Position numbers and translations under genes: made by a program. A stretch of DNA of 57,801 nucleotides, the filler included, from Dugesia japonica (lineage: Eukaryota): the NCBI GenBank assembly GCA_001938525.1. It is 5 parts of 5 records of this genome, joined end to end, with 100 filler letters (N's around TTAATTAATTAA, not from the genome) between each part and the next. Parts side by side here need not be neighbours in the genome. Positions count along the whole stretch, not along the records: positions 17,933 to 27,046 come from MQRL01584441.1; 4 more parts are not named here. One strand, written 5' to 3'. The notes below the pieces were generated by a model. It saw nothing but the letters and a program-made list of their open reading frames with translations. It made no database searches and had not been told where the DNA came from. Positions 155 through 37,804 of the stretch are shown here, in pieces. Within the stretch, counting starts at the first letter, position 1; every line of letters starts with the position of its first letter.

Positions 155-769
155 TTATTTATAGACTATAACACCATTTGGATTGAAAACATCAGTTAAA
201 ACTCTAAGATGATCAGGACATTGCTGTGTAAAATCCAGAAAAGTATATCCATGAGGCATTACTGTTGCATCTTTAAATGAATCCAATAGAAATTGTCGAT
301 TATTTGGATACACTTGTCTTGCTATAAAATCAACAACAGTTTGATCTCTTGGATTTTGAAATATAACCAAATATTGAACATTTAAATTACGAGTTCTATG
401 ATCACCACCTTTTTGAAATAGATTTTGTGTAATGAATATCACAGTAACACCACAATGTCTTGATATTTTTGTGAATAAATTGTTAAAGTCCTTTTCATTA
501 TTAGCTTCTTGATACAGATCATCAACAACATTCAAATCACCAGTTTTCAATTTCTTGCTCCAATTGTCATCAAATCAGTTAATTATGGTCATTTTTCTAT
601 CGCAAAATGCTGATTGAGTCATTTCATGCTCTTTATCTGCATCCCTCCCAATATGTTTGATTGAATTTTGATTTGAATAAGTTTGATTTCAATAATTTAC
701 ACACAAACCAGATTTTCCACTACCACTTGGTCCAACAATTTGATGTACAGCATTAATCCTTAATTCCAT
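155..769 (-). pseudogene. Maverick packaging ATPase (A32/FtsK-HerA family), disrupted
   Basis: From ATG 769: MELRINAVHQIVGPSGSGKS (Walker A), then a stop. ORF 155..550 has VVDDL (Walker B), SRH, FITQNLF and NPRD motifs typical of Polinton ATPases. Confidence 0.92.
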
Positions 770-859
770 TATAATTTATGCTTGCTTAAACGTATCAATT
801 GAATTAATATTGTTTATACAAGTATAAATACCATTTTAAAAAAGAATTATTCATAAATA

Positions 860-1321
860 ATGATTTCAAATATTAATTACAGAGGAAAGGTTGATCAAGA
901 AATAACCATAAAAACGAGATTTTCATGTGGAAAACCTGCTCAAGTAGTAGAGAAAATAGACAAGTATACCCTTGTTTTCTTTAAATCCGGATACTGTAAA
1001 ATCATGTGTTGTAAGAAACCAATAAGACTAAAGGATTTAAAGTATAATATCCAGAATATTCAATTATAATGACTTACAGTTGTCCATGATTTGAGAACTA
1101 TAGATAAGTTTATATGAATTATCCAAAGTAATCAAATGCGTATATGAACCAGAAATAATCCCAGGATTAAGAATTTCAAAATATGATCCATTATCTGTTA
1201 ATTTATTTTCAAGTGGAAGATTGTACTAGTTGGAATAAAAACATTTTATTATCAATCAATCTTTAAAGAAATATTAAAGGAATTAATGAAATTAATTAAT
1301 AATTTAAATACTATTGTTTAA
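860..1321 (+). pseudogene. TATA-binding-protein-like gene (two TBP repeats), disrupted; copy 1
   Basis: Repeat 1: ISNINYRG...TLVFFKSGYCKIMCCK. After the stop at 1067-1069 and a frameshift: CVYEPEIIPGLRISKYDPLSVNLFSSGR/IVLVGIK...NTIV*. Matches TBP TALIFSSGKMVCTGAK and YEPELFPGL...LIFVSGKVVLTGAK. Confidence 0.85.
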
Positions 1322-4470: not shown

Positions 4471-5476
4471 GTCTGCTAAAAAATTTAAATTTCCCGCCAA
4501 AAAAAAATTTTTTTAATTTCTCACCAAAAAATACTTTTTTAGAAATTTCCACCAAAAAATAACAAGACTCCCCTCTTCCCTGCTTAAAAAATTTGAAAAC
4601 ACACTTTCCAGCCAAAAATACTCAAAAAATACTCAAAAATACATAAAACACATTAAAATGCCATTACTTTCATCAAATTCATCAATTTAAGAAAATTGCA
4701 ACATTTTTAACCAAAATAAAGATTTTAAAAATTTATGACGTCATACACCCCTAACAGAAAAATTTCAAATAAATAATAAAAAATCTGATAATTAATTCTC
4801 TTTCCACAAAATACCACTCCCTCCATCCTTAAAAATTTGTTTAACACAATTATACTACTTACAAAAATCAACCAATCAAATTAAAGCCCTTTAAATAAAA
4901 AATCAAAGCACATTCGACATACAAAGTCTTCTCCATCACATTACCTTTCCAACAACATACCTACCATTCAAATCCAATAACCCACTACAAACCCATAATT
5001 TACCAAAAAACACGCTACGATAACTCATACGACTGTTCCGTGGCGCCCCTACCCTTCTAGCAAAAACCATCCATCACACACCTTAAGTCCTTTAAACAAT
5101 GTATGGACCGAACTTTTGTCCAAATTACAAACAAATCTTAAAAACTACAACAAATTATTTCCAAGATCTCCAGCTACTCCTCGAGACCAAAACCATTCTT
5201 TCATAAACACACATGGACAACCACACACACAAACTCAACTTGATCTACTTTTTAAAAGCCCTCTTAGCAATCTAAACACACACAAATTTTAAAATTTAAA
5301 AATACGATCAAAAAAATTTTAATCCCAAAAATCTTAGAAAAAAAAATAACATAAAAATCATAGCAAAATATCATAGCACAATCATACTGTGTTTCCGAGC
5401 CCCCTCAGGGGAAGGGGTTCCCCAAAATTGTGTGGGGGAAAAAATGTTCCGATGCGCCACTTTATTCCTACTTCAA

Positions 5477-5639: not shown

Positions 5640-6705
5640 ATGGGTAATTTAGAGTCATTATCACGAATTTATCTGAAATTTATCTCAAACTGTTGTAATG
5701 GAAACAATGTGGACAGATCTAAAAAAATCCAGCAGGATTCAAAGGATTGGAAAAGCTATAGAAAGCAACAAAAAGTTCAAAAAGCAAGACGAAAAAAATG
5801 GTTGTCGAACCAGTTAGCGTACAATCTGAACAAACCGATGTTGAAAAGATTCCCAACATGGTCGTATAAAACATATAGGATTGATGATTTATGGCAAATG
5901 GATTTGATGTAAATGATTCTATATTCAAGAATTAATAAAGGATGCAAGTATATTTTGACATGTATCGATGTATTTAGTAGATTTGCAAGAGCTGTACCTA
6001 TAAAATCAAAATCATTTATCGAAATGGAAGCTAAAATCAAGATAATGTTTAACGACAGTCATCCAGATAATTTGCAAACTGATTACGGAAAAGAATTTTA
6101 TAATACAAAAAACAAGAATAGTATTAATCATCTAAAACTTAACTATTATTCCGTATTTTCACAATATAAAGCGGCATATGTTGAAAGATTTAATCGAACC
6201 TTCAGAGATGCATTAAAAAACGTACTTTGTACATACTAGTAATAAGACATAGATTCATGTATTACCAAAAATAATTGACAGTTATAATCATATAAGGATT
6301 AAATGGAGCAAGACCCATTGATTTATCATCTGACAATTCAATGAAATTATGGTTATTGAATCAAAACCCAAAAGCAATTATAAAACATAAATATAAAGTT
6401 GGTGATCATTCATCAAAATTTTCAATAATAATTAGAGTAATGAAGTATTTCAAATATCAAAGATTAATACCAAGCAGAACCCTGTCATGTATATGATGAA
6501 AGATCATGAAGAAAATATTACTGTTGAAAGATTTTATGAACAAGAACTACAAGTCATAGAACAGCCACCAGTATTTAGAATAGAAAAGATTATAAAGTCA
6601 AAAAGAACTGGTAAATATAAACCTCTATATGTAAACTTACATGTGTGTGAAAAACTTACTTGGATATCTGCATCTCAATTAGTTAACAATGAACAACGCA
6701 AATAA
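5640..6705 (+). pseudogene. Maverick retroviral-like (rve) integrase with C-terminal chromo-like domain, disrupted
   Basis: WQMDL, YILTCIDVFSRFA, LQTDYGKEF, VERFNRT (DDE triad); C-terminal FYEQELQ...FRIEKII...TWI. Confidence 0.93.
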
Positions 6706-7726
6706 TTTCTATACAATTTTACCTAGTAATAGCTGTCCACGTATTCATCCAGATAATAATTCTAGTAAATTTATTGTTGAACTTGATAATCCAATTTACT
6801 TGAACAATAATTGAGAAGTACCATTGATGAACTTTACTATACAATACATTTTAAATCTATAGCAATGCATCTTTTGAATATGTAACTGGATATCAGCATT
6901 CAAAGGAAATATATATCACAAATAATAACAAAACAGAAAGATTAATTGTTAATAATGTTGCTGTTTTGATGTATTTGATGAAAGAAACTTGTTAGTTATA
7001 ATAAAACATCAGGATTATGATTAAATATTTGAAACTCTGGAAGAAGCGAAAAGATTTGGATTTGATAGTTTAAGTAATGATATTTCAAATAGTGGTATTA
7101 TTACTTTTCGAGACTTTAAAAATAATAGGGACATAGATAGAATTAAAGTTATATTAAAGTATTCATTAGAAAATACCGCTGTATTATCTTTTAATGACGA
7201 TTTATACATTAAAGATATACCAAAAATAAATGAATACATCACACATGCTTTTAGACATATATTCAAAACTTTTAGTTTAAAGACAAATGAAACATTTAAC
7301 GTTTCGTCAGAAACACTTAAATAAAAGAATCACCTTTGATGGAATCCTGACAGAAACATTAGAATTAGATAGTCAAACATATTCCCAAAGTAATATAAAT
7401 ATAGTTTATAAAGAGGAAATATTCAAAGGAGTTCGAAACCCAAAACTAATCACCAATCCTCATCAAAGGTTCATCTACAGTAATATTATTGAACCTATAA
7501 TAGTTGGCGATGCAAATGTTCCCTTGTTGAAATCATTATGGTTGGAGAGTTATGAAGATGAATAACTCGTTCAAATAATAGTTAAGAATCCAGTGTATCT
7601 ACCAATTGCTAGTTCATGTATAAACAATATAGAAATCAACATCATAGATGATAACGGCGATTATTTAGATTTGCCTCTGATGCAAAAACTCATTTAACAT
7701 TACACTTTAGGAAAATAAATGTCTAA
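6689..7726 (+). pseudogene. Maverick minor capsid protein (penton), disrupted
   Basis: N-terminus MNNANNFYTILPSNSCPRIHPDNNSSKFIVELDNPIYL; C-terminus FIYSNIIEPIIVGDANVPLL...NPVYLPI...NIEINIIDDNG...TLHFRK. Confidence 0.88.
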
Positions 7727-8040
7727 TACTGATATTATAGCACTATATAGCACTGGACAGTCTGGTGGTGAATTACTATACTTTGTAGGAAAATAGTATG
7801 GATTCGGATGTTGCAAACAGTTGGTCGATTTGCTTTACCTTTTCTTAATCAATAATAAAGCGAAAATTTTAACACCACTCAAAACAAATGTAATGAATGA
7901 ATTTAACAATTTTTTGGATTCAGATGAGCTTACAAAACTGATCTCAAAACCAAAGGGTGAAGAAAATCTTAAAGTTAGGGGGAAAAACGTAAGAATTTGA
8001 TCTTGATAGGTATAAACAAACGACTTAAAATATGTAAAAT
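7719..8040 (+). pseudogene. Small Polinton core-like protein with QxGG protease-site motif, disrupted
   Basis: MSNTDIIALYSTGQSGGELLYFVGK*YGFG/LQTVGRFALPFL resembles the Gly-rich small ORF found between Polinton capsid genes. End coordinate is approximate. Confidence 0.6.
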
Positions 8041-8052
8041 CATATTAGACTA

Positions 8053-8880
8053 ATGATTTGTGGAAAAACAGAATTGTGGATTTTTTATCGTCCATCTCCT
8101 CAAGGTGTTACTAAATATCGAGTATTGGAAGATGTGTTTCCAATGAATAATATTTCTGAAAGTACAAATGATGTAGAATGTTTTATAAATGAATCGCAAA
8201 CTGAATATTTGGATTTCAATGATACTTTCTTGTATGTTCAAGTGAATGTAGTGGATAAGAATGGTAAGAATCTAGAAAAAAAGTCTGATGTGGTTCCGGG
8301 TAATTTCATGTTGCATACTCTATTCAAGGACGTAATTCTTTAATCAAATAATATTAAATTTGAAGCTGCAAATGAAACTTATGTACTTAAAGCAATAATT
8401 GAGACTATTTTGAATTATAATAGAGATAATAATGATGTTTCTCTTAACGCAATAGGATATGGAAATGATGATTTTAGACAAACAAGAATTAGATCATCAA
8501 AACCATGGTCTCCATGTGGTCCTCTAAAACTAGACTTCATGAATCAACCAAAACAACTTATTCCAGGTGTCAATGCTTACATTTGATTGAAAAGATCGGA
8601 GGCAAGAATGTGTTTAGAATCCAAACTTGATGAACCAAAATATAAATTATTGGATGCAAAACTAATGATTAAAAGAGTTCGAGTGAATTCATCTGTACTA
8701 ACAGCTCATTAAATTAGACTAAGTAAACAAAATGCTATTTATTCTTTAGAAACCAAAGAAATTGTATAGTATGCAATTAGTAAAGACAGTTCATCCTTTC
8801 ATAAGGAGTAAATCTTTGGAGATCGAAGATTACCAACTTTTATTTTGGTTGCATTTAAAGATGGAGAATGGGTTAAGAAA
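8053..8880 (+). pseudogene. Maverick major capsid protein (double jelly-roll), 3'-truncated
   Basis: EYLDFNDTFLYVQVNVV, NFMLHTLFKDV, KAIIETILNY, GPLKLDFMNQPKQLIPGV, AKLMIKRVRV, RLPTFILVAF read in one frame across several stops. Confidence 0.88.
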
Positions 8881-17932: not shown

Positions 17933-18028
17933 TGTTGTGTATTGTATGTTGTGTGTTGTGTGCTAGATGTTGTGTGTTGTGTATTGTAAGACAGTCATTA
18001 TTAATATTTGTTCCGCATCCGCATTCAG

Positions 18029-18296
18029 ATTGCAGTCAGAAGCTCAAGTGTTAGAATCCAAATTTATGGATAAATGTAAGAAAAATGGTTTGAAATGCTC
18101 CTGGAAAACAAGTCTCGGCAGTCCAACTCTAAATCTCGTTCATGCGGTAGAAGAGAACAAAGCTGATTTAGTCGTCATGGGCTCTCGAGGATTGAATCTA
18201 TTCCGGAGAACATTGGTGGGTTCTGTTTCAACATATGTAACGCAACATGTCAATATACCGGTGCTCGTCGTTCCTTCCTCTTCGAGTTGGGTCTAA
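18029..18296 (+). CDS. Universal stress protein (UspA-like), terminal exon
   Basis: ADLVVMGSRGLNLFRRTLVGSVSTYVTQHVNIPVLVVP is the USP G-2x-G-9x-GS signature; preceded by a CAG acceptor. The ORF start at 17967 is probably intronic repeat. Confidence 0.92.
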
Positions 18297-20201
18297 CCTT
18301 ATTGTTATCATCATTATCATTATCATGTTATCCGGCTGCTTTATACCAAACATTTTGTTATTCTCGCTTTAATTTAATTTTATGTTTCAAATGTTGAATA
18401 ATCAATATTTTTAATAAATAAATAATCATTTGTCTTCATTCTGATTGGTTGTTGATGTTTGGTTTCTGTGTTTCGTTGGATTATTGGTTGGAATTGATTA
18501 TTATTAGAGAGAGAGAGAGAGAGAGTTTATTATTATTGATTAAGCCACTTTTCCGGCAGAATATTATTTACTATTCGATTCTTCCGACCGAGCTTTTCTT
18601 TCTCTTTTCGTTTTCGTCTGTTAGCCATAACCAAGAACCACAAGTGCTTGCAAAATCCATTTTCTCTATTTAACGAGTCTTGATTAGAATTCTGGGAAGT
18701 GAATTCTTATTAAAATAATTCTTTTGCTCTCTTTTTCTGCCCGTCGAAGTTACCGTAATAAACATTCTACGTTCTGTCTNGGACGGTCGAGTTGCTTGGA
18801 AGTCTAGTTGATCATAGCTGTCATCTCTTCGTTAAAACCCTCACTTTCTACACGTGTTTCTGATGCTTTTGCATGCAATTTGATAGCTTTCTTGTATTTA
18901 TGTGGTGTTAGCTGTTATTTGCAAATTGTAATCTTTCTTCATTGTTGTTTCTTGGAGTCTTTTGAACACTCTCGGTTTCCGTTACATTGTATTATTTGAG
19001 CTTTCCACTTTCTGTCTTTTTTTAATTGTCTTTATTTTTACCCCTTTTTATCTTTGTCATTATTGTGTCCCTCATTTTTCAAGAATTTAAAAAATCTTTC
19101 ATACCACTTTACTAATCTTGTCATGTTCCTCGGCCTCTTCAGAATAATTAATCAATGATATTTCCAGTGATTAACTCTGACAAGAACATTTACTAGTGGT
19201 GGAAATTTATTATCTAATTTATAATGCTTATGACTATTATTGTCTGATGATTCCGCGTGAATAGTTGTTTGTAAATATACAAGAATAAATGAAATAAAAA
19301 CAAGGTACTACTCACTAGACACGAACAAAAAGTTGTTTATGCACTATGGCATGAATATGAATATGGAGCCACGGCAACTTACGGAAGTCTTACTAAGGAA
19401 TCTAGTAGTTATTCGGAATTCCTTACGGGCCTCATTAAATCATATTTTTAGAATCTTAGAATTTTCAACTGTAAAAATAAAACAAATTATTCAATTTTTA
19501 TAAATAATCACAATATTCAACGTTAAATTAATTTCTTTTATAAATATTTATTTTTTCATATTAATTTGTTTTATATATCAGGTAAATTCGAAAGTTCCTG
19601 AGGTTTTTATTTATCAAACTATGAAAATCAGTAGTTAAATAGTAGCACACTGTCCAATTTTTTTTGTCACAATTTGGGGGAGGGTCAGAAACACATTACT
19701 ATTGTGACAGAATTTTTGTGACATCTTTTTCTCTAAGATTTTTAAGATCAATATTTTTTGATCAGATCAAATTTTGTTTTGAACGGATCATTTTTGATCC
19801 CGGAAAATTTTTTTAATCGGATCAGAAAATTTTTTTTGATCGATTTTATTATTTTTTTAGGAAAGAATTTTTGTTTTAATTAATGGAATTTTTCTTTATA
19901 ATTTAAAAAAATTTGTTTTAATTAATGGAACTTTTTTATTTTATTTAATGGTTTTTTTTGTTTTAATTAATGGATAGCCCACCGTTTAACAAATGGTAAA
20001 ATTGAACATCCCGACGAGACAGATCTTCAGTGTTTCGTTGAGATGNTCCCACTAGAGCATAAAGTGGATATGGATGAGGAATAAGTATTAGTTCTATCTT
20101 AGTGTCGATAGTTCCTACAAAATAAACCCTAGTTTTTGTTGTCTTATACATTTTTATCTTTAATCAAAACATTACCAAATACTATTTTAGAGCATTATTA
20201 A

Positions 20202-20628
20202 ATGGAATACAAGTGGGAGGTAAGCCTTGATGTTAACTCAAGCAGAGCTGTGTTTAAAAGATATTAAAACCCATATGATCGTAACGCAGGAGTCTTGATA
20301 GAAAGATCAAACCTTCGGTTTAACAAGTAATTGAAGAAAGACAATGGGATGCCACCGAGAGGAGTGCATAATACAACTGGTGTGACCCTAGAAGAGACAG
20401 AGTTGCATTCCCCTCGGCTCCACTTTTTTTGAGAGATCTACCGAAATACCACAAGTAGAGCGTATGTGGCACGACGGACTTTCCTTAATAGGCATCACCA
20501 CGAACAGCCTACCTTCACCCACCCAACTGAGTTCGTTTATTCAGGGCTATTTATGGAGTGCTCGTATTGGGGCGTCTAGTAGTAACGACGAAAACGGGGA
20601 AGAGGAAATCACGGATGTTTCTGTATAA
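20202..20628 (+). pseudogene. Degraded orphan ORF
   Basis: MEYKWEVSL...GYLWSARIGASSSNDENGEEEITDVSV* is readable through two stops and one shift; GC-richer than its flanks. Confidence 0.4.
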
Positions 20629-20752
20629 CGTGGTTAATTAAAATAAATGTTTAGCTAGAAATTTGCGTTATCTGTCTCGTTATTATTTTGTTGTTTATGA
20701 CACCATTCTGTCTTCATTTATTAAGCTATAGATTTCTTAGTAAACAGTCAAA

Positions 20753-21088
20753 ATGAGATCATTTTATTCTTATTGTATTTCTATTATAGTGCATTCGTCA
20801 TTAAACCGTTCGTCGACAACCAATAAGCAGATGAGAGATTCAAGTGAGGACACGGAAATGTCCTGGGAGTTATACCAGTTGGCAAAACGGCGATATGAAG
20901 CGGAGATAGCCACCGCGAACGCAAAGGTGAAACGATATAGAACTAAATACGTGAATGTTCGTAAAGAAATGGAAACTGCGCATGACCAGGAAAGAGTATG
21001 GAAATCGCAGATGGAATCATTTGCTGAAATCATCCGGCCCAGCCATGACCGGGAAAATAAACTGGTCGACGATATATTAAAGCTTTGA
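20753..21088 (+). CDS. Orphan basic coiled-coil protein
   Basis: Open 111 aa, GC-richer; helical ELYQLAKRRYEAEIATANAKVKRYRTKY segment. Confidence 0.5.
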   Translation: MRSFYSYCISIIVHSSLNRSSTTNKQMRDSSEDTEMSWELYQLAKRRYEAEIATANAKVKRYRTKYVNVRKEMETAHDQERVWKSQMESFAEIIRPSHDRENKLVDDILKL

Positions 21089-21296
21089 GAAAAAAACTAC
21101 CTAGAACCTCTGATGATAGATAAGAGCACTCAGACTAAATCCGTTTAGCCTGTCCCAATTGTACCGCACCTGTAAAATAAAGGATTAATTTTGTTATGAT
21201 TATCGTCCTCAATATATCTTATCTCAATTCTATGAACTTTTTTGTTGAATTTAATATTAATTAAAATTCTTCTGATAATAATAATTACTTAATTTA

Positions 21297-21710
21297 GTGC
21301 CTCGAATCGCGTTCCCTAATAGTCTGCGTCGATGCCATCGAATCATGCGCCGTCTCTTGATAGAAAGGCATCTTAAGCGGAATGCCGATCGAGCTCTTCT
21401 TAAACACCTCGATCAAAAGAATGAATTAATAAAGAAACTCGATCTAGTGATTAGGAAGCAGAGTGAGTTGGCAAACCAAATCAAAGCTCTGGAAGAGGAA
21501 ACCAGATTGCTGTTACAGCGGAAAATCGATTTCCTGCAGTATTTCTCGGACCTCTCCCGAATACTCGGTAACCCCACTAAGGTCCATTGGGACGACAAAG
21601 ATGATTCCGCATCGTTCAATTTTTTAACAACTGATCCGGCCCAGTGGTTAGGCCCGGTTGCATTTGGAACTTATGTAATTATTATACAAAATAAAGTTTA
21701 CCATGTTTGA
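21297..21710 (+). CDS. Orphan basic/coiled-coil protein (probably entered by splicing)
   Basis: Open 137 codons after a TTTAG acceptor; Arg-rich region followed by Leu/Ile heptads. Confidence 0.5.
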   Translation: MPRIAFPNSLRRCHRIMRRLLIERHLKRNADRALLKHLDQKNELIKKLDLVIRKQSELANQIKALEEETRLLLQRKIDFLQYFSDLSRILGNPTKVHWDDKDDSASFNFLTTDPAQWLGPVAFGTYVIIIQNKVYHV

Positions 21711-21944
21711 CTCAGTCTAACATTTAATAAATTCAGAAGAATAGGAAAAATAATGAACCCAAATCCAAAAGGGTATGGGTGTGCACTTCCCATAAGGTGA
21801 GAAGTCAACCGCTATTTGCTGAATACCTAAGTTAGGGGCGTTAGGTTAAATTCTTGAAAGGGTCCCCTGAGACCTGTTTTTCCCCAGCCACTGGTTTTTC
21901 GTTATTCAACTCAGGTGGAACCTCAACACACTCATAAACCGTAT

Positions 21945-22195
21945 AATACAGGGTTACTATGTAAACAATACACTTATTAACTATATGTTGTCATAACAAC
22001 ATTTACTTATAAGTTTTATATAGGCCTTAAAGATATTTTTCCAGTAGTCTTTAGTTATATATATGGAAAATTGACACTNTCACAAATCTTATAATGTAAA
22101 TTGCTATGTAAATAATACAAGGTATATATGTAAAAATACACTCATAAACCCTCTTTTTTCTTTAACCCTATTTAGATATCAAAATATTTACTTTG
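21945..22195. repeat. Repeat block shared with the piece-1 Maverick
   Basis: GGTTACTATGTAAACAATACAC, GCTATGTAAATAATACAAGGTA and TTAACCCTA(TT)TAGATATCAAAATATTTACTT match 2540-3262. Confidence 0.75.
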
Positions 22196-22928
22196 ATTCA
22201 AGTGGAGAATAAAGGCTTCAAGAAGTCCATTAATTCAGTAGGAGTCATTTGGAAAGTTACAAATATTGCAAAGAAGATCTAAATTTATTTACATAATGTT
22301 TACTTGAAGTTTACTTTATGTTATTTTTTATTGAAANNNNNNNNNNNNNNNNNNNNNNNNNNNNNNNNNNNNNNNNNNNNNNNNNNNNNNNNNNNNNNNN
22401 NNNNNNNNAAAAAAACTAAATAAATAAAGCAGACTTAATAATAATCCATTTATTTTAAATCACTCATAACAAAAATAACTGTTGTATTGAATCATTTCTG
22501 TCTGGAACTTCTCCATAACGAGCATTTAATTAAACTTTGCACACTCGATACAGTCATGTGTGCAAATTTCAGCTGCCATATATTGGTTGACAATCACGTC
22601 CGGAATCATTGGGTTTCTTTCTTCGTCGAGCATTCAACGTTTGTTTAATATATCCGTTAACATTCTTAAATTAAATTTATTACTAAAATTACAAAATAAT
22701 AAATATTCAACCTGCTTTACTAAATTCGTCTTCGATTTCCTTCATTGTTGATTTTCTTGCATCCATTTTAATTTAATTTACAAGAAATAATAATGAAATG
22801 CATTATATATATGTATAATAAAAAACCACAACGTAATATGTTAATAATTTGGAATTTTAATATCTACATTTAAATTGATACTTTTCATACTTGCATTGTA
22901 AATGTTTAGCGTCCGTTTTGCGAATTTT

Positions 22929-23375
22929 CTAAATTTTATCAAGCAAATTGAATAAATCTGAAGTAATGTTATTCACATATCCTTGAAAATATAAAATTTA
23001 AAGCCCTAGTATCACTACTTTTCTTGTTGAGAACACATTTACTCATAAAGGGTCATATTTTAAAAGTCTTAAATCAGGAAATAACTTTGGTTCGAACCAA
23101 CAGTTGACTATTCTTGCTAATTTATACAAATTTATTGAAACTCCCATATTTACGACAACTGTTAGTGACTGTAATTGAAAAATGTTTTATATCATAGGGG
23201 TTCAAATCATGCGGTTTCAATGGTTTCTTACATCCCATTATTCTACATTTTCCTGATCTGAAGAATACAATTTATCACTTTTAACTTTAACTTGACATGG
23301 TTTGACTATAGGAAAGCTCATTTTCTTTGTTACTTCTTGCGACATTTCACCTCTGTAATTAATATTGGTAATCAT
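22929..23375 (-). pseudogene. TATA-binding-protein-like gene, disrupted; copy 2
   Basis: MITNINYRGEMSQEVTKKMSFPIVKPCQVKVKSDK/IVFFRSGKCRIMGCKKPLKPHDLNPYDIKHF/QLQSLTVVVNMGVSINLYKLARIVNCWFEPKLFPDLRLLKYDPL*VNVFSTRKVVILGL*...; colinear with copy 1 and with both TBP repeats. Confidence 0.88.
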
Positions 23376-24647
23376 AATTGATGAATAAATGAGGAACATT
23401 GGGGTTTTGATGGATTTAATTTAATTAATTTGTTAAAACAAATATATAAAATTTGTTGGGTTGAAACACTTGAGAATGGAAAATAAAACAGCGATTAGGT
23501 ACACCTTAAATTTGAAAGATGTCACAAGAAAGAAAACGAAGAACACAGACAAAAGAAGGAGTTAGACGATTTACCGAAAGGAATAATTGAAGAAAAGACT
23601 GAAATAAAGGAAATAAATATGAGAAATGATCCGTAACCTAGTGAGTTACAAAGGAAGGTCTGGCGTCGCTACCTTATTAAACGAAGAGTGTTTCGCAATA
23701 CTGCCGGCATTAATTAAAGGATAAAACATGCAATTAATAATTTCTTCGCTAATGTTGTCAACGACGGGTTGTATTAGCACACACGCCTTGAAAGGAAATG
23801 AAATAATATGGGGGTTATGTGGAGGGGCATGTAGAAAAAAAATTCTGATGGTGGTGTTGGTGTAGTAAACTGATGGAAATTTTTTTTTCATAGGGATTGG
23901 ATAATGACAATAGACAATAAAGACATTAAAATCTAGTAATGACATTCTTAAAGTTGAGTAGCTGTTGAAAAATGAGAATTAAATTTAACCATCATTAAAG
24001 TAGCGAAAATCACTAGTAATCTAACATAATAATTATCCCACTAGTAATTTAAATGTCGCGAAATACACTGGTAATAATTTGTAATCATTATCATAGAACC
24101 ATGAATCGTATAACTATTCGTTATTACTTATTTCTAGGTCAACTCTGGCATAGACGACCCAAAAAAGAAAAGTAAAAACTTCATGTGTTAAAAATGATAG
24201 CAATTATTAGCAATGATTATAATGATCAATAATGATGCTATTAATGATGGTGCTAGAATTAATAATGATTGCCATCAGAATAATGATAAACTTTCGTAAT
24301 GTTGGGTTGCTAGGCTTTTGATGTTAGTTAATATTTGACTTTATTGCTTTTAATTTCCTTCACTAAATCAGAACGGTTTTCTTTGTCGATTATCTGTACT
24401 GTCTGGGAGATGACACCTAGCAACCACAGAAATTTGTGTTACTCTCTCCAGTAACACGATCCCCCTTTTCCCGGATTCAGCGGNNNNNNNNNNNNNNNNN
24501 NNNNNNNNNNNNNNNNNNNNNNNNNNNNNNNNNNNNNNNNNNNNNNNNNNNNNNNNNNNNNNNNNNNNNNNNNAAGATCAGAAATTTGAATTGCATCGCA
24601 TACAAAGATTATATTTTACACAAGGTTAAACACAAATTCAATGTTCA

Positions 24648-24911
24648 TTATTCATCCAGTGTGATGGTTTCTTTCGATCTTGTTCTGGCAACTTCCGGTA
24701 CCGAATTGGATGCTTGAGTTAAGGTCCGTACCGTTGCGATCAGCACACTTTCACTGTCCGCATAGGCTTCGTTGATATCCGCCATAGCACGGCAAATTTG
24801 TGATAGTGCGAGATCTCGTTCTTTTAATTTGATTATTTTTTCACGGAGTTGAGCATTTTTCCTTGCAATTCGGTAATTTCCGTCTTTAATCTTTTTTGGG
24901 TCAAACACCAT
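24648..24911 (-). CDS. Orphan coiled-coil protein
   Basis: Open 87 aa from ATG; NYRIARKNAQLREKIIKLKERDLAL helical segment. Confidence 0.45.
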   Translation of the reverse strand: MVFDPKKIKDGNYRIARKNAQLREKIIKLKERDLALSQICRAMADINEAYADSESVLIATVRTLTQASNSVPEVARTRSKETITLDE

Positions 24912-25223
24912 TTTGCCCGTAGGTCTGTGATTGAATTATCTGTAGATCTTTTGGTTTCAGACACTACAATAATCAGATAATAATCAAATAATAAATAATA
25001 ATCAAATTAGTAGTATAATTTACAATTCATTTCAACATCATTTTTAAATTATATTTTGAATAAGTATTGAAATACAACAGCTATCTCGCTCACATTAACT
25101 AAATTGTCAACCTTAAGATTACTGGTATTATTCACGACAACATGGCCGATGTTATTAATTATTATCACTGTAAATAAACAAGTAACTCTTTCAAAGAAAA
25201 CTATATTACAATGCATAACATAA

Positions 25224-25448
25224 TCACACTATGGTTTCCACACTGTTGTCATCCAGTGGTGTTAACACTTGCTGGAGTATTGTTTCGACTTTGTTGTTCA
25301 GCCGTTCCGATAGTTTAGTATATTCGTCGGCCTCCAACTGCGCTGCCCGCAACGTCCGAATCACCTGCTGCTGTTGCTTGGCGAGCTCCATTGATCGGAT
25401 CAGTAGAGATATCAGCTCTTTCTCTCTTTCCTGCTGACACTTGCTCAT
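25224..25448 (-). CDS. Orphan coiled-coil protein
   Basis: Open 74 aa; its ATG overlaps the TGA of the upstream ORF (ATGA). Confidence 0.45.
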   Translation of the reverse strand: MSKCQQEREKELISLLIRSMELAKQQQQVIRTLRAAQLEADEYTKLSERLNNKVETILQQVLTPLDDNSVETIV

Positions 25449-25747
25449 CTCCTCCAGTTGTGTCTGATGCTGTTGATCCTGTTTCTCACTCGTATTTGGA
25501 GAGTATTTATTCTCTGGACCTGCTCGGAGAACTGCGACCGTTGCCGGAGAATTTCCCGCCGCAATTCTTTTATTTCTATATCTTTAGCCCGTAATTGATC
25601 CTGAGAAATCCACCAAGGATCGTTGTCTGTTCCTTCAGTGCCGACAGAGTCCCAGAACGGTGGCATATTATTGCACGCGCTAGTTTCAAATACATAACCA
25701 GTGGGTTCTAGAGTCTGCATCGCCTCTTGTTTAGTGATTGTTGTCAT
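25445..25747 (-). CDS. Orphan protein with Arg-rich coiled-coil C-terminal half
   Basis: Open 100 aa; ATG directly after a CTAG acceptor-like site; GC-richer than flanks. Confidence 0.45.
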   Translation of the reverse strand: MTTITKQEAMQTLEPTGYVFETSACNNMPPFWDSVGTEGTDNDPWWISQDQLRAKDIEIKELRREILRQRSQFSEQVQRINTLQIRVRNRINSIRHNWRR

Positions 25748-26329
25748 CTAGATTGAAATATACTAGAACCATGTTAACAATAATATATACTACGACATCT
25801 AATTATAATAACAAATTATATTTACACATTATCCTCTGATATCACAGGTATTGATCACCTGTCAGCATGGGTGGACGTGGATCATCAGGTTATTATCAGA
25901 TACCTTTCATTGTTATCATCTCATATCTCCTGGCATTATTCATCAATTATCATATCGTCATCCTTATCAGTAAGCTTAACACTGGTACAATAATTTATGG
26001 ATGACCCATATCCCTCCCGCTGCCAGATGGTCCTCCTGCCATTAACACTAATAGGATCTAATAATAATATCATAACTAATCATTAATATAAATCGAAGTA
26101 ATATTTTCATTAAATTTTTACATCATATTCGTAGTCAATACATTAAACTAAATTAAACTACGTGAAAGAACTCAACCACACCACCACCGATTCCAATTTA
26201 TTACAACTCTTTCATATTTCATCGTTTGTGTAACTCTCATTGTCTGCAATACTCCTCTCGTAAGCATTTATATCTCATTATAAGTCTCGTCTCACACCTC
26301 ACTCTCATAATTTTCATAAACATGAGTTA

Positions 26330-26750
26330 TTTTCAATTGTCATAGTCAACTCTCTCCCATCATAATCTCTCTCAACAATCTTTCATAATTCATAATATCG
26401 CTTTCAACCATCTTTCATAATGCATAATATTATCTTTCATAACGTAATTNNNNNNNNNNNNNNNNNCTTTCAACCATCTTTCATAATGCATAATATTATC
26501 TTTCATAACGTAATTCCTAATTCGTAATAGCTCTTTCAACCATCTTTCATAATTCCTAATGCATAAGACTATCTTTCATAACATGATTCGTAATTCATAA
26601 AATCTCTTGATCACTCGCATGTCTTTCATAATTCATAATTCATAATAATACTCGCATGTCTTTCATAATTCACAAATCATAATAATACTCGCATGTCTTT
26701 CATAATTCCTAATTCATAATATCTCGACCGTATTTCATGATAAAATTCAT
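26330..26750. repeat. Tandem array of TCTTTCATAATTCATAAT-type units
   Basis: Ten or more TCTTTCATAA cores at 20-40 bp spacing, spanning a small gap. Confidence 0.85.
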
Positions 26751-27046
26751 AATGCATGGTGAACAACCTCGTGGATATCTGAATGAGGACGACCATCATT
26801 GCTAGCACGGCTAGACAATGCTGGTCCTCCCTTCAGTCTTCCAAATTATACATTCATTTTATTCTTAAAAGATCAATAAATAAAATTTACTTCTGTTCAC
26901 GAAAATTTTCAAATACTCAAATGTTTAAAATTTGTTAAGAGAAATTTGTGTTTAGTGTTGTTTTAGTGCGCCTTTGATTTCTAAAAGCATTTGCTTATAT
27001 ACTGTATTTTATTTTGACAGTTTCCGTAGGCTGCCACTTGAAAATC

Positions 27047-27677: not shown

Positions 27678-28527
27678 TTAGACTAATGTCCATTGGATAT
27701 AATTTGGAATTTGTGGGTTATTGCGACGCCAATAATGCTGCTTCTTCCACCTGTATCGCTTATGCATTTGAATTATCATAACTATAAAACCGAGAAGGAA
27801 AAGTAATGCAATCATTCCCAGTATTGAAAAAGGGTCATATAATATTTTAGGATCAAATGGTTTTACTGTTGTTGTAATCCATAGTTGTAGAATTTTATTT
27901 CGTAATTGTTGATAATCTACTTTTGGATTGTCTCGAGAGTTTTCCTTGAACCACTTTAAATGCTTGTGTTTATATTTAATGTTACTTGTTTTATGACACT
28001 ACTTGGTGATGTATTTATATGTAAGGTGCTTGTTTCTCTTTGCTCTGTATATATCGCCTTGTTTGTTGATATCATATTTATGCTCGTTATTTTCTTTGAT
28101 AAAATTTTCTGATTTGATGCGGTTTTAAACACCTTTGTTATTACAACTGGCTCTTCCTTCTCTACTATCCATTGTACTATGATTTGATACCATGTGTCTG
28201 CTTCCAAACCTTGTAGCTGTATCCGACTTATTTCTCGACCAAATTTCTCCTCTATTGATACGTATAAGCCTGTTTCCATAATTAATTTGTTTCTTCTTCT
28301 TGCTGATACTTGTGTTATGTTTTCTATATCATTGTGTGCAATGAAGGTAATTTTATCTGAATATATTGTTCTGGTCAAGTAATTTTGTCCTTTTCTTGTT
28401 GAGCTGAACTTAGTGTTATTAGAGCGAGTACTGTTAATGTCAAGAGTGGTAGAGTATTCTGTGAACTCGATCGACGATTATACTTATGTTGCTTTTGAGG
28501 TTCAATTTCTGCTTCCGCTATTTTACA
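27678..28527 (-). pseudogene. Signal peptide-FN3-like-S/T stalk-TM protein following the Gypsy integrase
   Basis: Integrase frame continues CKIAEA...HKYNRRSSSQNTLPLLTLTVLALITLSSA|QQEK; after a shift IQLQGLEADTWYQIIVQW (FN3 L-x-x-L-x-x-x-T-x-Y), then a Thr/Ser-rich tract; after another shift ILGMIALLFLLGFIVMII-QMHKRYRWKK...TLV*. Confidence 0.65.
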
Positions 28528-31500
28528 TCAATTTACTGCTACAATTATTGGATCATCATTTTTATTTTCTATCACATGTAGACCGGTTGGAGTTACTTTG
28601 ACTACTTCATATGGAACTTTGTAATGTCTCGCCAATTTATTTGTTAATACTTTCTGTGTAACTGGTATTTTTATTCTCACTTTATCTCCAATTTTGAAAT
28701 TATGCTCCTTGGCATTTTTATCATATTGATCTTTGTATTGTTCTTGTTCGAATTTCACTTTTAAATTTTCATGTTTGTATACTTCTTGCAATCTCTCTTG
28801 AATCTTTGTAACATAATCTGGATTATCCATATATTGCGATACAGCCGGTTCAAATGTTACATCTATCAACATATGGTTTTGTCTTAGATACATCAAGTAA
28901 AAATATAAATATCCTGTAGCCTCATTTTCGGTTGTATTATGTATGAATAACTTGGGTTTGATAAAGAGATCACAATCATTTTGATGTTTATTTACGAAAA
29001 CTGCCAATCTATTACATAATATACTGTTAAATCTTTCTACTAATCCATCTGTTTGTGGATGATAGGTCGTTGTATTTATTTTCTTGATATCAAACATACT
29101 TGTTACTTGTTGTATGACTTCATTGAGAAAACTTTTCCCTTTGTCTGATGATAGTTTTTTTCGCGCTCCATATTTGTAAATAATTTTCTCAACTAATAAT
29201 CTTGCTACTGTTTCTGCTGCTTCATCTTTTGTAGGAAATGCTTCTGCAAACTTTGTGAAGTAATTGTTGAATACTAATATGTGTTTATTACCTTTTATGG
29301 TTGTTGGTAATTTGCATGGGAAATCCATTGCGCATGTTTCCATTGGTGAGCTGGGTCTTGGCATGGGCTGCAATGGAACTTTAGTTTTTGTTCCTGTATT
29401 CTTTCTTGTATCACAAACACTATATGCTTGACACCATTTTCTCGCATCATCTTTAATATTGTGCCTATAATACTTTTGCAACAATCTCGACGTGGTTTTT
29501 CTACTTGACAAGTGTTCTCCAAGTGCTCCATCATGGTATTGTAATAGTAATAACTGTTTTAGAGAGTCTGGCTCAATCATTAGATTTTTTCCTAGGTTAT
29601 TGTACATGAGCAGACTTTTATACATTTTATATTTAGTATTCTTTTCTTGAATCATCATCTTTTTAATTTCTTGTATTTTTATCTTTATTTTGTTCTTATA
29701 AAAATGTTTTTGGATTTGTTCAAGTTACAATTGACATAATTTCTAATACATTTATTTCTGAAATTCTGAACAATGAATCTGCATTTCTATTAGCTTTTTC
29801 TGGTTTGTATATAATACGTATGCTCATATCTTGAATTTTCATCGCCCATTTGAGTATTCTACTGGATGCAACCTTATTTTTCCACAAACCTTCTAGTGAT
29901 TTATGATCCGTTCGTATAATTATTTCAGTTCCATATATAAATGGTCTAAACTGCTTTAACGCAAATATGATAGCTAAACATTCCTTTTCGATAATTTAGT
30001 ATCTTGTTTCCGCTGCTTTTAACATTCTTCTTGCATATGCGATGACATAGTCTTTATTTTTCTCGTCTTCTTGCCCGAGTACTGCCCCCATGGCATATTC
30101 GCTTGCATCTGTCATTACTATGAATTGTTTGGTAAAATCTGGGTATCTTAGTATTAGGGTTGTTAACAATCGTTGTTTTAGTGTATTGAAGGCTCCTTGT
30201 TGCTTAGGACCCCATTGAAGTTTTTTGATTTTTCATCTAATTGCTCTACAATCATAACATTTTTGCTTTCACCTTTTGTTTTCACGCCTTTTGTTAATTC
30301 TACTAATGGTGATGCTATCTTTGCAAAGTTTTCTATAAATCTCCGATAATATCTCACTAGACCATTAAATCTTTTTAATTGTTGTACGCATTTTGACACT
30401 GGAAAATCTTGAACTGCTTTCACTTTCTCTGGATTGGGTTCTAATCCTTTTGATGATACAATATGTCCAAGGAATAAAACACTTTCCTTTGCCCATTTAC
30501 ATTTTCTTGGCTTTAATTTGATATTTGCCTTTTTGATTCTGGATAATACATTTTTTATGTTGACTAAATGTTGCTCTAACGATTTGGATGCTATTAATGT
30601 CATATATGTATACCACTACATGTTATACACCTGCTGGTACTGTGTTCATTAATCTTTGGTACGTAGCTGGTGCATTGCATAATCCAAATGATAATCGAAC
30701 AAACTCATATAGTCCACCATCAGTACAAAATGCTGTCTTTATTCGATTCTCTTTCTGTACTGGGATCACATTATAACCTTTATTGGCGTCTAAAATTGCA
30801 AAATACCACGCGTTCATGAGTTTATTGAATTGTTTGTGTATCTTTGGAAATGGATGTGTATCTTTTTTTGTAGCTTCATTAAGTTTTCTGTAATCTATAC
30901 ACATTCGAATTTCTCCATCTTTCTTTTTAACTGGTACTATTGGTGATGCCCCTTGACAAAAAACTATTTTGTATGATTCCATTAGGTTTGTTTTCCTCTA
31001 CTTGTCTTTTTATTTCTGGTTTCAACGCATATGGTGCTACATATGGTTGTTGTTTTAAAAGCCTCGTATCGCATGTGTCAATCATATGTTTTATAATATT
31101 TGTTCCTCCCATATCGAATTCATGCTTGGCAAATGCATCCTCATATTTATCCTATAATTTCTGTAATTGTTGTTTTTGACTCACTGTAATATCTTTGTTC
31201 GTTATCTTTGTTTTCTCATATTACTTAGTTTGTTTGGATTTTATGAGTTCTGTGTCAATTAATTTTCCAATTTTGCTTTGCTGATCTAAAATAAATTCAA
31301 ATAAATCATGACTACTTAACTGACTTGTCATTTTGCTTGTTTTTTTTGCGATCTCACAATGTTGTGATATGGTGTATCTGGATAATTAGGTGAAAATAGT
31401 TTATTCAGTAACTGCATGTTTGTTTTCCTTGGTTGTTTCTCAATTACAATTTCATATATCTCATATCCACTACCGTTTTCAAATAATCTTCCTAATTTTG

Positions 31501-32201
31501 TTCCTTTCTTCAGTGTCATATCGTAATTATTAACGTTTGTTATTCTCATTGGTATTGTACCTTTTTTCGGTTCTACAAATCCATACATTATTGATAAATA
31601 ATGTTTTGATGTTAGTTCGGTTCAAAAATATATGAATCTTTGCTTTGAAATTCTGTGTTAATGGGTATTATACATTCACTACAATGTTCTATCGTTATTA
31701 ATTCTGTTGCAAATACATCATAATATTTAGTTTGTACTAGTAACGGAGTTACCATTTTTAGTGTACTGTCTTGTAAGTCGATGACATAACCCTTTAATCT
31801 TGCAAGAAAATCCATGCTTGAAATGCTATTTTGTGTTCCATTTTCCATTACTCTAAACAATTTCTTATCTGATTGTGACTGTACATTCAATTATTCTTTT
31901 TGTTTTTATTATATGATCTGTAAATGATTTTATACCTTCTGGTTTATAATTTTTATGTTTTGTTTTTGTGACTCTTTTATTATTGAGCTTCTGTATCTGT
32001 TAGTGAAGGTATATTGATTCCGTTTACTATGATGTCTCTTGTTGGTCGATTATTTTCTGAGTCTATAACTACTATTTGATAATTTTTTTGATATTTGTAT
32101 TGTGATTGATCATCTATTTTTATATGTTTTAATTCGATACTTTCATGTTCATATGGTTTATATTCATTATCTGACGACGTGTAATTCTTGTCATTAGTCA
32201 T
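28528..32201 (-). mobile_element. Ty3/Gypsy family A pol (PR-RT-RNase H-INT), disrupted
   Basis: PR IVNGINIPSLTDTEAQ; RT SPIVPVKKKDGEIRMCIDYRKLN, GLYEFVRLSFGLCNAPATYQRLM; RH VMTDASEYAMGAVL; INT HHCC zinc finger, SDKGKSF, YHPQTDGLVERFN. Confidence 0.95.
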
Positions 32202-32253
32202 TTATCTAATTCTTGTTCATCATTCATGTTTACTGTGTTTCTTTAGATTTTTT

Positions 32254-34005
32254 TTAACTATGGTTTTGCACAATCACATGTTTTGCGATGAATAAACAGA
32301 AAGATGCTCCTAATTTCCAAGTGTAACCAAAACCTGCATGTAATTATCTTAAAGAAAGAAGTTGATGATCCGTTAATTTTAAGAATCTTAATACATACCA
32401 CCCAAATAAAATACATGAGAATATTACATTAACCATTACATTCGCTCCAAGAATCTATCTTAAAAATGACGCATTGTCCTTTTAAAATGATCTACGTGCA
32501 ATAGTGACTCAAAATTTACATCATTTCCAGTACTCCCTTTTACTACTTTGTCAACCATTATGGATATTATCTTTTCTCTTTGTATTGGGAAAAGCATATG
32601 TTTACTTACTTTCTCAATATTATTGATAGTGTGAATTCCAAGATTTTTCATGTTGTCAATTCTCTCCATTTCGGTTGTTCTCTGAGTTTTATCATTTCCA
32701 TTATGAAGGGAATTGGTGCTGTCTTTCTATTTGATACTGTTATCCATACTTTGTCCGTATTTTATACATAGGTTCAAGAACGTTACTACACTTTCCAATT
32801 ACATTTGGTTGATAATGTTTATCTGTTAATATTCTTGCTATTGCGAGTAAAAATACCTTTTCTCCTTTATAGATTACTGGTAATTCATTAGTGCATTTCT
32901 CATAATCTGGGAGAGTAACTGCTACTGGTTTGCATCTAAAACTTACCAAAGTTTCTCCCACTATTCTTTCAAATGTACCTTTTCTTCGAGCAAGAGTGCT
33001 ACAACCAAATCAGGTTTTGTGACTTCCATTGCCATTTTTGTTCTTAACAATTCTCGGTAAATTTTACATTCTTTCATGACGGTTTCCTGATATTTTCTGT
33101 CTATTTGTCTTAATATTTCATGATATAGGAAATCAATTTTGTTGTTTAAGTAGGCAGCTATTTTCACATTTAATTTATCTACTTCTGGTCTGGCATCTTT
33201 AATTTCCGTTGTTGATAAATATAGACCATTGTAATTGGTTATTTTTACCGCCACGCCACATTTGGTGTCTACTCCTTTTCCAATAAATCTTAGCGCTTCT
33301 TGTGTTGAAATTGATATATATATATATATATATTTGGTGTTGCCTTTTCATTGATTACTGTTGTTTTCCTTTTTTTATCTCGAATATTAGGTGGCTTATC
33401 CTTTGGTTGAGTTCCATTAATTTCTTTCATTGCCACTGTTCTTAATTTTGTGAGTGTACATTCAAACGGATTTATTTTGTATGTGATCATGGACTCTCCG
33501 GTATCAAAATTTGTATCTTTTGAGCTACAAAATGGATATGTCATCATCTTTCCAGTACCAGCGTCGAATGTTGCTTTTATTTTCTTTAATTCGACATGAT
33601 ATCAGTTTTTACTTGTCATCATATTTTATAGCTTCCTCCTCCACAATATCCAATTGCTGTGAACAATCCTACGATGTCTACTTTTTGTTTCACTATTGTA
33701 CCTACTTTTACTTGTAACTCATTACCATGTACTTTTAGCGTTTTTGTTTTAAATGCCTTTTCACAATCACTTGCATCTATTATTACTATGTCTGGAGACC
33801 AAGCTGGTATTAGTGGTATTATTTGTGTACTATCACAATATGATACTTATTCTTTAAACTTTACACTACATTCATATGCAACTGCGTGTAAAAAATCAGA
33901 TTCTTGATACAAATGAATAATTGTTGGATTTGATATTTTCATTTTTGTAGGATGCGCTTCTGGAAAATTATCTACATCTAATAGTGAATATTTTTTTGCC
34001 CCATT
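32254..34005 (-). pseudogene. env-like glycoprotein, chuvirus G / class III fusogen type, disrupted
   Basis: YSLLDVD, HLYQES...AYECSV...SYC, YLNNKIDFLY, ECKIYRELL...PDL, GETLVSFRCKPVAV...CTNELPV...RIL...C...PMYKI, TM NVIFSCILFGWYVL, LHAGFGYTWKL follow the motif order I recall for chuviral glycoproteins. Confidence 0.78.
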
Positions 34006-34029
34006 TTAGAGTATTCCTCTTGATTTGAT

Positions 34030-36807: not shown

Positions 36808-36809
36808 TT

Positions 36810-37804
36810 GAAACACTCATCACTTACAGCATTTTTATCGATGAACAACTTTTTAAACAAAAAAGTAGTCTCGCAATGGGTAACAATTTGTCTCCTATTT
36901 TAGCGATAATTTTTATGAACTTTATTGAAAATAAAATTGTTCTCAAAGCTAAGAAGAAGAAACATCTTTGGGTCAGTAATATAGATGATATTTTCTTTAT
37001 TACTAATTCTCCTTTAAAAATATTGTGGAACTAGCGAATAGTATTAATAATAACATCAAATTAACTTAAGAGAAGTCAGTCGACTTTCAGATTCATTTTC
37101 TGGACACCTTAATCCAAAAGAAACTTGGTGAAGTATTAACTAACCAGTTAAATATGAAACAATTATACAGTGAACAGCTATTACCCTGGAGTAGTAATAC
37201 TACCATCAGACAGAAAATTGGAATAATCAAGTGTAAAAGATTATAAGAGCTGAAAGACTATTTATAAATGAAGAAATAAGATTGACTTCACTCAGGTTGA
37301 TTAAAAAATAAAATTTCTATATAATGGTTACCCAATCGTATCTAAATATTTATCCTCAAATACAAAATTTAATAAAATCAAACAAAAGACAAACACAATA
37401 ATTAAAAGACCTTTTATTAATGAGAAATGTAGCCAAATCATGGAAAATATAATTTAAAAATCAAAACTCAAACACAATCCGAGAATTATATTTAAAACTC
37501 AAGCACTTTTGGGTATCCAATTACAGAAACCAAGACAGAACTTTCGTGGTTCCACATGCATTTGTGATGGTAGAAATATATGCAATTAAAAAAATATCAC
37601 TTAAAAAATAACATAAACCTTATGTAAGGATACATATATAGGAGAAACATGCAGAGCCATCCGTACAAGAATTAAAGAACATCTCAAACAGAAAGAAAGT
37701 GAAGTCTTCAAATTCTTTCAACAGAAACATAATATTTTACCAGAAAAATATCATATTACATGGAAAACATTAGGAACAGGCTACATTTCTACACTTCACA
37801 GAAA
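36810..37804 (+). mobile_element. Penelope-like element family 2 (RT + GIY-YIG), 5'-truncated
   Basis: LAMGNNLSPILAIIFM, NIDDIF, FLDT; YIGETCRAIRTRIKEHL. Confidence 0.9.

Follow-up and report, generated by a model that had tools for sequence, protein, structure and literature searches.

The window analysed here is a 57,801-nt stretch of Dugesia japonica DNA, composed of five assembled pieces linked by N44-TTAATTAATTAA-N44 spacers, of which piece 2 spans positions 17933-27046. On the minus strand of this piece lies a gene for a shortened TBP (mini-TBP), with its ATG at 23375 and its stop at 22929, hereafter copy 2. A further mini-TBP gene, copy 1, is found on piece 1 (Table 1). A previous, sequence-only reading had placed the two copies on separate assembled pieces, which the spacer positions bear out, and had named a series of motifs shared between them; all are recovered from the minus strand in copy 2 (NINYRG at 23366, KPCQ at 23303, FFRSG at 23265, CKKP at 23232, KYDPL at 23060 and VNVFS at 23042) and match copy 1. 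That reading was silent on breakage. Copy 2 carries frameshifts near 23273 and at ~23180-23200, as well as stops at 23045 and 23000, and with two frameshifts and two stops it lacks the open reading frame of a functional gene.

The contig that holds copy 2 measures 2,075 bp and is bounded by gaps (22337-22408 and 24484-24573). When scanned with the Pfam TBP model, repeat 2 of copy 2 was matched with an E-value of 1.4e-4 and 22.1 bits, just below the cut-off of 22.9. Both repeat-2 Phe residues are retained, as had been stated previously; copy 1, in turn, has Ile at the first of these sites. The stirrup of copy 2 reads FEPKLF; its second acidic site is occupied by Lys, against Glu in 146/147 family members. 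This Lys is private to copy 2 because nearly all genomic relatives differ there: 185,883 of 186,852 contig depth from such relatives (run X1) show another letter. The claim that the EP stirrup is kept thus stands for the family at large and for copy 1, which has both acidic residues, and needs amending for copy 2, which has only the first. With these lesions, copy 2 is a dead relic of a Maverick mini-TBP gene and makes no functional mini-TBP.

Table 1. Positions, in window coordinates, of the features on pieces 1 and 2
Feature	Position	Strand	Remarks
Packaging ATPase of piece-1 Maverick, broken, divergent from copy 1	155..775	-	57% to L003 ATPase, E 8e-76
TATAAACA box, 49 nt ahead of ATPase start	811..818	-	
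Copy 1, broken mini-TBP gene of the other lineage	860..1321	+	stops 1067 and 1070, frameshifts near 1100 and 1218
AGTAG-starting end of piece 1, downstream of copy 1	5300..5472	-	
Decayed genes of piece-1 Maverick: integrase, minor-capsid-like, small core-like, major capsid	5640..8860	+	tblastn to L003 proteins; Pfam rve
AGTAG-starting end of repeat-derived block around copy 2	19641..19790	+	74% over 80 nt to piece-1 terminal region
Repeat block common to piece 1 (2635-3280)	21925..22193	+	inverted vs piece-1 arrangement; 72-N gap before copy 2
Assembly gap, 72 N, between repeat block and copy-2 contig	22337..22408	.	
Copy 2, broken mini-TBP gene, ~150 codons	22929..23375	-	motifs, Pfam, family-profile-guided reading

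Surroundings of the two copies

Maverick/Polinton elements are marked by an AGTAG-type end, terminal inverted repeats and a 6-bp target duplication. One AGTAG end, resembling that of piece 1, is present at the copy-2 locus, the second lying outside the window, and in the bin at 19641 the summed contig depth climbs from 30-55 to >1,000. The shared repeat block had previously been put at about 0.7 kb from copy 2. Its match to piece 1 holds; the distance is less secure, as the interval crosses the 72-N gap, across which no joint is found among the matches listed (15 of 96). Moreover, the block aligns with piece 1 in plus/plus orientation, the TBP gene and the terminal sequence in plus/minus; the block is hence inverted with respect to the layout of piece 1. 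The order of end, repeat block and TBP gene (oriented to the end) is common to both pieces. No core Maverick genes were detected on 19641-27046 in tblastx comparisons with piece 1 and seven loci; this part of the scaffold is gapped and stops at 27046. The ATPase that copy 1 has upstream is absent from the corresponding place at copy 2, where gaps flank the gene on both sides.

Several further features surround copy 2. The shared repeat block (window 2620-3280 and 21925-22193) is an array rich in GTAAAYA and CATAAAC motifs, the former of which we take to be Forkhead-like. Small, apparently open coiled-coil ORFs occur within this multi-copy region at 20753-21088 and 21345-21710 (plus strand) and at 24648-24911, 25224-25583 and 25445-25747 (minus strand); Pfam returned nothing above cut-off for them, with coiled-coil matches at sub-threshold level only, and they are possibly sub-terminal cargo genes. 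Depth, which is summed here and is not a copy number, reaches ~100x that of neighbouring repeat DNA at 22760-23670 and 24300-24483, with a near-unique stretch (23700-24290) in between; many subfamilies may share the TBP segment, or an abundant derivative may carry it. Two small ORF remnants lie beside copy 2, at 22520-22768 (minus strand), which by its sequence seems to hold a short GT-AG intron, and at 23477-23640 (plus strand). A host universal-stress-protein exon is located just beyond the repeat block (window 17967-18296; Pfam Usp, E 1e-16), and decayed gypsy-like LTR retrotransposon ORFs (integrase, reverse transcriptase) were recognised by eye at 28500-37800 and 56700-57600 of the window.

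RNA reads from three runs align at the copy-2 locus. None of 211 reads in run X19 had at least 99% likeness to the copy-2 contig, none of 28 in run X18 had at least 95%, and two of 56 in run X22 had at least 99% over 7.7 kb; 70-82% of the aligned reads continue into unlike sequence. These reads stem from related copies, and are evidence of neither expression nor silence of copy 2. Five RNA molecules of run X22 start at window position 23425 (minus strand), 50 nt ahead of the copy-2 start and ~20 nt past a TATATA, a possible, weak transcription start of the related copies.

Piece 1 is, by tblastn, a decayed Maverick of the same type as the elements that house the mini-TBP relatives described below. 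The L003 protein to which its ATPase was compared matches Pfam Pox_A32. On the capsid side, TATAAACA boxes are found at 5559, 5632, 7619 and 8011; the minor-capsid and core-protein labels used for this side are our assumption from Maverick gene order. The ATPase/TBP part and the integrase/capsid part are separated by the AGTAG end and a zinc-knuckle-like remnant (CWSCHKIGH; window 5472-5640), and piece 1 may therefore represent two elements or a single rearranged one.

The mini-TBP family and the lineages of the two copies

A database search with copy 2 retrieved seven relatives among ten candidates, six of them full length (144-150 residues), and a profile built from them picked out, at E<=1e-10, 192 representatives from 1.84 billion. 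The Pfam TBP model matched all seven relatives scanned (38.7-61.1 bits vs the cut-off of 22.9), and the intact relative P0002 falls with TBP-domain clusters in the Atlas. For the family alignment we kept 147 near-full-length sequences of 265 database proteins, excluding fragments, long forms and canonical TBPs.

At the DNA level the copies are 68% identical over 372 nt (E 6e-28), and their proteins agree at 47% of 139 residues. We built a tree of the two copies and 29 of the 147 family rows (31 rows in all), in which copy 1 pairs with P0016 (support 100/100; 83% identity) and copy 2 with P0002 and P0003 (100/99; 81% and 77% identity), with the two copies placed together in 0/200 bootstrap trees. 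Their earlier description as paralogs within a gene family is not supported as worded, each copy being nearer its own intact relative and both being dead. Rather, as judged from the tree, they are counterpart genes of two Maverick lineages that split before either decayed.

Past selection, the other half of that description, is upheld and proves to have been purifying. Over 118 codons away from the breaks, dN between the copies is 0.36 and dS 0.98, giving a ratio of 0.37 (bootstrap 0.20-0.57), a figure that is rough because dS is near 1 and hence close to saturation; a ratio near 1 had been named beforehand as speaking against selection. Over the core 98 codons the ratio is 0.29. Differences are distributed unevenly over the three codon positions (39/24/58, p=0.0007), and none of the 400 neutral simulations run for each kappa value (1, 2 and 4) yielded a dN/dS as low as that observed. 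The underlying codon alignment, for which the family profile served as a guide, comprises only the pair of copies, comparisons with four loci being saturated. Given a ratio of 0.37 and no neutral simulation as low, selection acted during element activity and not on these genomic copies. At 27 sites conserved in at least 90% of the family, copy 2 departs four times (once at the second stirrup Glu) and copy 1 eight times; the first 60 family rows depart 0-2 times.

Where do the relatives reside? Their setting could be read from L003, L004 and L007, the L001 and L002 loci being too short. L007 encodes an A32 ATPase, an rve integrase, capsid-module genes and an adenain protease, followed by mini-TBP; ATPase, integrase and protease were identified by Pfam, and an adjoining PolB-like ORF was recognised by eye only. 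In L003, an ATPase (A32), an integrase (rve) and a weak jelly-roll capsid match lie near mini-TBP, and in L004 a relative of the minor-capsid-like gene of piece 1 is found just upstream of it. Going by these neighbours, mini-TBP relatives reside in Maverick/Polinton elements. No TFIIB match was obtained among the ORFs scanned from the three loci, which are incomplete and of which a subset of ORFs was scanned.

Other observations concern the wider group. The mini-TBP gene of L003 is split by a 40-nt GT-AG intron-like insert (L003:377-416), removal of which restores the fit to the family motif, suggesting spliced nuclear expression. There is a second, full-length type of TBP with two repeats (L005:772-1293 and L008:2764-3351; Pfam 84 and 129 bits), and in L008 it adjoins a Maverick-type ATPase with canonical TATAAAAG boxes. 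The L007 and L008 Maverick contigs are filed in prokaryotic metagenome-assembled genomes and were probably mis-binned. A scan of viral contigs yielded a single TBP match, L006, which turned out to be an unrelated large-virus TBP; the other viral-contig scans for mini-TBP gave no match. Scans for further Mavericks returned seven weak ATPase matches (E 6e-5 to 3e-4) and no capsid matches.

Predicted fold and DNA-binding face

The saddle that the sequence-only reading had set as a check is formed, in prediction, by the natural, intact relative P0002 (pLDDT 95.8). Foldseek relates this model to human TBP with an E-value of 2e-9, and structure comparison with TBP gave Z 13.4 and rmsd 2.6 over 149 aligned residues, the best non-TBP row scoring 7.2. 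Repeat 1 is reduced: helix 1 of the model comprises five residues, and residues 52-60 form a coil where TBP has helix 2. Accordingly short is the spacing between G125 and N159, which is 34 in TBP and has a median of 21 in the family.

Yeast numbering was mapped via the plant-type TBP P0226; positions 194, 203 and 205 then fall on Ile, Val and Leu, in agreement with PMC1636458. By strand register, the first intercalating Phe (F99) is Pro in 144/147 family proteins, and the other three are retained (F116 in 146/147, F190 in 146/147, F207 in 147/147). Model and alignment hence confirm what had been noted for both copies, namely a shortened repeat 1 with PxQ at the site of the first Phe, and specify it as a loss of helix 2 and a Pro at that Phe. 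Measured against a canonical TBP, the family keeps three of four intercalating Phe residues and lacks repeat-1 helix 2 with its basic regulator patch (21 vs 34 residues; coil in the model), and it has the two acidic TFIIB-contact residues of the stirrup (186/188) in 144/147 proteins. The roles previously assigned to the stirrup (TFIIB) and to the repeat-1 helix patch (regulators) agree with the accessible parts of Ravarani et al. 2020 (PMC7221094), where the two stirrup glutamates are TFIIB contacts and three N-lobe regulator signature residues sit on helix 2.

The DNA-binding face, in addition, has been rewritten in both repeats. In repeat 1 we find V122R in 145/147, T124M in 147/147 and V71N in 143/147 proteins, and in repeat 2 I194R in 140/147, V203C in 143/147 and L205N in 147/147; N159S is likewise near-invariant. 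According to the available portion of PMC1636458, specificity was changed at precisely positions 194, 203 and 205 in yeast TBPm3, these residues face base pair 2 of the box, and repeat 1 contacts its 3' half. This altered face and a matching TATAAAC box go beyond what had been read from the window before, and together they point to a role in promoter specificity and not just in regulatory escape.

A TATAAAC box ahead of capsid and packaging genes

Our promoter survey covered the 110 nt ahead of 41 start codons in four mini-TBP sources (L003, L004, L007 and window piece 1) and one contrast, L008, all of which have a TBP gene. Within this distance TATAAAC precedes 13/15 packaging and capsid-module genes of mini-TBP elements, 0/7 mini-TBP genes and 0/2 packaging/capsid-module genes of L008 (full-length TBP, TATAAAAG), counts that are optimistic because the motif was picked post hoc from the very regions counted. 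The cassette genes without it are the minor-capsid-like genes of L003 and L004, and the motif also stands ahead of other ORFs (e.g., L003 1710 and two L004 ORFs). Boxes lie 17-119 nt upstream of start codons and always include the leading T of TATAAA. The extended form, TATAAACA, is on the sense strand in 7/7 cases in L007 and 6/6 in L003, each count being matched by 1/200 shuffles, and where it falls within upstream genes two reading frames are represented. A C follows TATAAA at 13/23 sense cassette sites (L003, L007), as opposed to 0/10 antisense sites and 17/95 sites in window pieces 3-5.

Discussion

What might an intact mini-TBP do? At a rough probability of 0.58, we favour a late-gene switch of the Maverick, predicted to read TATAAACA and to recruit host TFIIB and Pol II, with copy 2 as its broken relic. 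In this scheme the mini-TBP gene would be transcribed early by host TBP, which we infer from its start lacking the TATAAAC box. The protein would bind TATAAACA through its altered repeat 1, in which the changes of F99 to Pro, V122 to Arg, T124 to Met and V71 to Asn may accept a C at position 7 that host TBP handles poorly. Its EPELF stirrup would recruit host TFIIB, and loss of helix 2 would remove the surface used by TFIIA, TAF1, Mot1 and Brf1. Box binding, TFIIB recruitment and escape from the regulators could in combination so turn on capsid and packaging genes late. Binding, orientation and timing are what we infer; box positions, strand and conservation are observed, and the saddle without repeat-1 helix 2 is predicted. 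More tentatively, and at slightly less than even odds, a widespread Maverick lineage would carry a natural altered-specificity TBP of 150 residues that has dropped the regulator helix, kept the TFIIB handle and acquired a private TATAAACA box.

Host TBP, in the accessible text of PMC10005294, introduces its kink between base pairs 7 and 8, and in a plant assay with plant host TBP a TATAAACG box was left with 27% activity, a drop that we count in favour of the switch. Counted against the switch is that TATAAAC may still serve host TBP, if less efficiently. Furthermore, the repeat-2 changes at 194, 203 and 205 are unexplained by a C at position 7, because these residues face base pair 2, where TATAAACA is canonical. 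They would also fit a protein that reads the box from the opposite strand (TGTTTATA), in which case TFIIB would face away from the gene. Both points feed an alternative in which host TBP reads TATAAACA as a weak TATA box and mini-TBP is a competitor or decoy, acting at other sites or tying up TFIIB and thereby damping host or early transcription. The TATAAA core retained in the box, with the residual activity just mentioned, fits such a decoy, as does the stirrup, which is the best-kept partner surface of mini-TBP; and changes at the same repeat-2 residues enable yeast TBPm3 to recognise TGTA (PMC1636458, as far as accessible), in keeping with TGTTTATA and TFIIB facing away. A decoy, however, leaves unexplained why C is enriched at the seventh base of sense sites relative to antisense sites and pieces 3-5, and why the element with a full-length TBP (L008) has a canonical box. 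Overall, we regard it as unlikely.

ATAAACA within the box also fits the Forkhead consensus. A host Forkhead-type factor might read the box, leaving mini-TBP an architectural part in replication or packaging, such as the bending of termini or of an origin. RYAAAYA sites abound in the repeat block close to each copy (12 and 3 matches), and the polar and basic residues gained on the DNA face of mini-TBP would be compatible with this. Such a function offers no reason, though, for an acidic TFIIB-stirrup pair in 144/147 proteins, nor for boxes that invariably carry the leading T of TATAAA at 17-119 nt ahead of start codons, and we consider it improbable, more so than a decoy.

A different kind of doubt concerns copy 2 itself: the repeat in which it lies could be non-autonomous or unrelated and have picked up the gene from a Maverick. 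The absence of core Maverick genes from 19641-27046, the inverted repeat block, and a summed depth over copy 2 ~100x that of the sub-terminal ORFs with the near-unique stretch at 23700-24290 would be expected of such an insertion. Yet the locus has an AGTAG end like that of piece 1, end, repeat block and TBP gene follow the same order on both pieces, and the scaffold merely ends at 27046; we accord capture a slim chance, and even so it would leave the function of the protein family unchanged. That the copies are domesticated host paralogs selected in the host genome, to which a dN/dS of 0.37 and low-level RNA from related copies might be taken to point, has a negligible probability in view of the four breaks and lost near-invariant residues in each copy, their closer kinship to different intact relatives than to one another and the 0/211 X19 reads at >=99% likeness to the copy-2 contig.

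The wider issue is whether animal Mavericks behave like viruses with a regulated late phase. With a conserved mini-TBP and a matching box ahead of capsid and packaging genes, a single small protein and a site of 8 bp are enough to put this to the test. If intact mini-TBP indeed acts as a late-gene switch, this would constitute an early-to-late transition run by one protein with host Pol II, a much simpler arrangement than the herpesvirus complex of six proteins, and evidence for a timed virion programme in Mavericks. It would also reveal a minimal TBP for Pol II initiation and natural routes of specificity change. Copy 2 is of value in this context because it documents that this genome harboured a second lineage and that the gene was under purifying selection during the active period of the elements.

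How does mini-TBP compare with known systems? With cellular TBP (PF00352; human 1cdw, yeast 7o4i_O, archaeal 2z8u) it shares the two-repeat saddle, the EPELF stirrup, three of four Phe residues and equivalents of N69 and P191. It differs in length (~150 vs ~180 residues, at 15-23% identity), in a helix 1 of five residues, in the coil replacing helix 2, in the Pro at the first Phe and in six near-invariant changes of the DNA face. Yeast TBPm3 (I194F, V203T, L205V; accessible part of PMC1636458) is altered at three positions that are changed family-wide in mini-TBP, to Arg, Cys and Asn, respectively; however, TBPm3 was engineered and carries other residues, whereas the mini-TBP changes are natural and accompanied by those in repeat 1.

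Among viruses, the closest map is that of the MELD viruses with adintovirus-like PolB (Starrett et al. 2021, PMC8502044; preprint 10.1101/697771), where, in the accessible portions, a TBP-labelled gene appears on a Polinton-type map in the legend of Fig. 5. It is a legend label only, in the section on non-animal datasets, and may denote either the short form or the full-length one (L005/L008 type); the parts of PMC8502044 and 10.1101/697771 covered hold no analysis of its structure, shortening, selection or promoters. The TBPs of large DNA viruses, many of which were matched by the P0002 model in Foldseek, share the viral TBP fold and a lost N-lobe regulator patch (Ravarani et al. 2020, PMC7221094, accessible text), and escape from Mot1 and other regulators has been proposed for them in the same paper, whose accessible text contains the word 'polinton' 0 times. 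Unlike mini-TBP with its acidic pair in 144/147 proteins, they mostly come with a TFIIB of their own and have the first stirrup Glu in ~40% (same source). Mini-TBP does not resemble the orthogonal TBP-TFIIB pairs of large viruses, in that its stirrup is host-like and not diverged, and no TFIIB was seen among the ORFs scanned from the incomplete loci.

Functionally nearest, provided that our reading holds, is KSHV ORF24, the late-gene TBP mimic of beta/gamma-herpesviruses, which in the accessible part of the preprint (bioRxiv 10.1101/2025.08.25.672222) combines a polar DNA face, a TATTWAA ahead of structural genes and use of host Pol II. In contrast to the bare 150-residue saddle of mini-TBP with its stirrup kept, ORF24 is large, works within a six-member complex, binds Pol II directly and, by a section title, is modelled as incompatible with TFIIB (10.1101/2025.08.25.672222). 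The literature searched, with subscription journals and Repbase outside its scope and some sources accessible in part, contains no description of a shortened Maverick TBP, a host-like stirrup in this setting or the TATAAAC box. Within that literature, viral TBPs, a TBP label on a Polinton-type map and the herpesvirus TBP mimic are known; the shortened form, its host-like stirrup and the box appear to be new.
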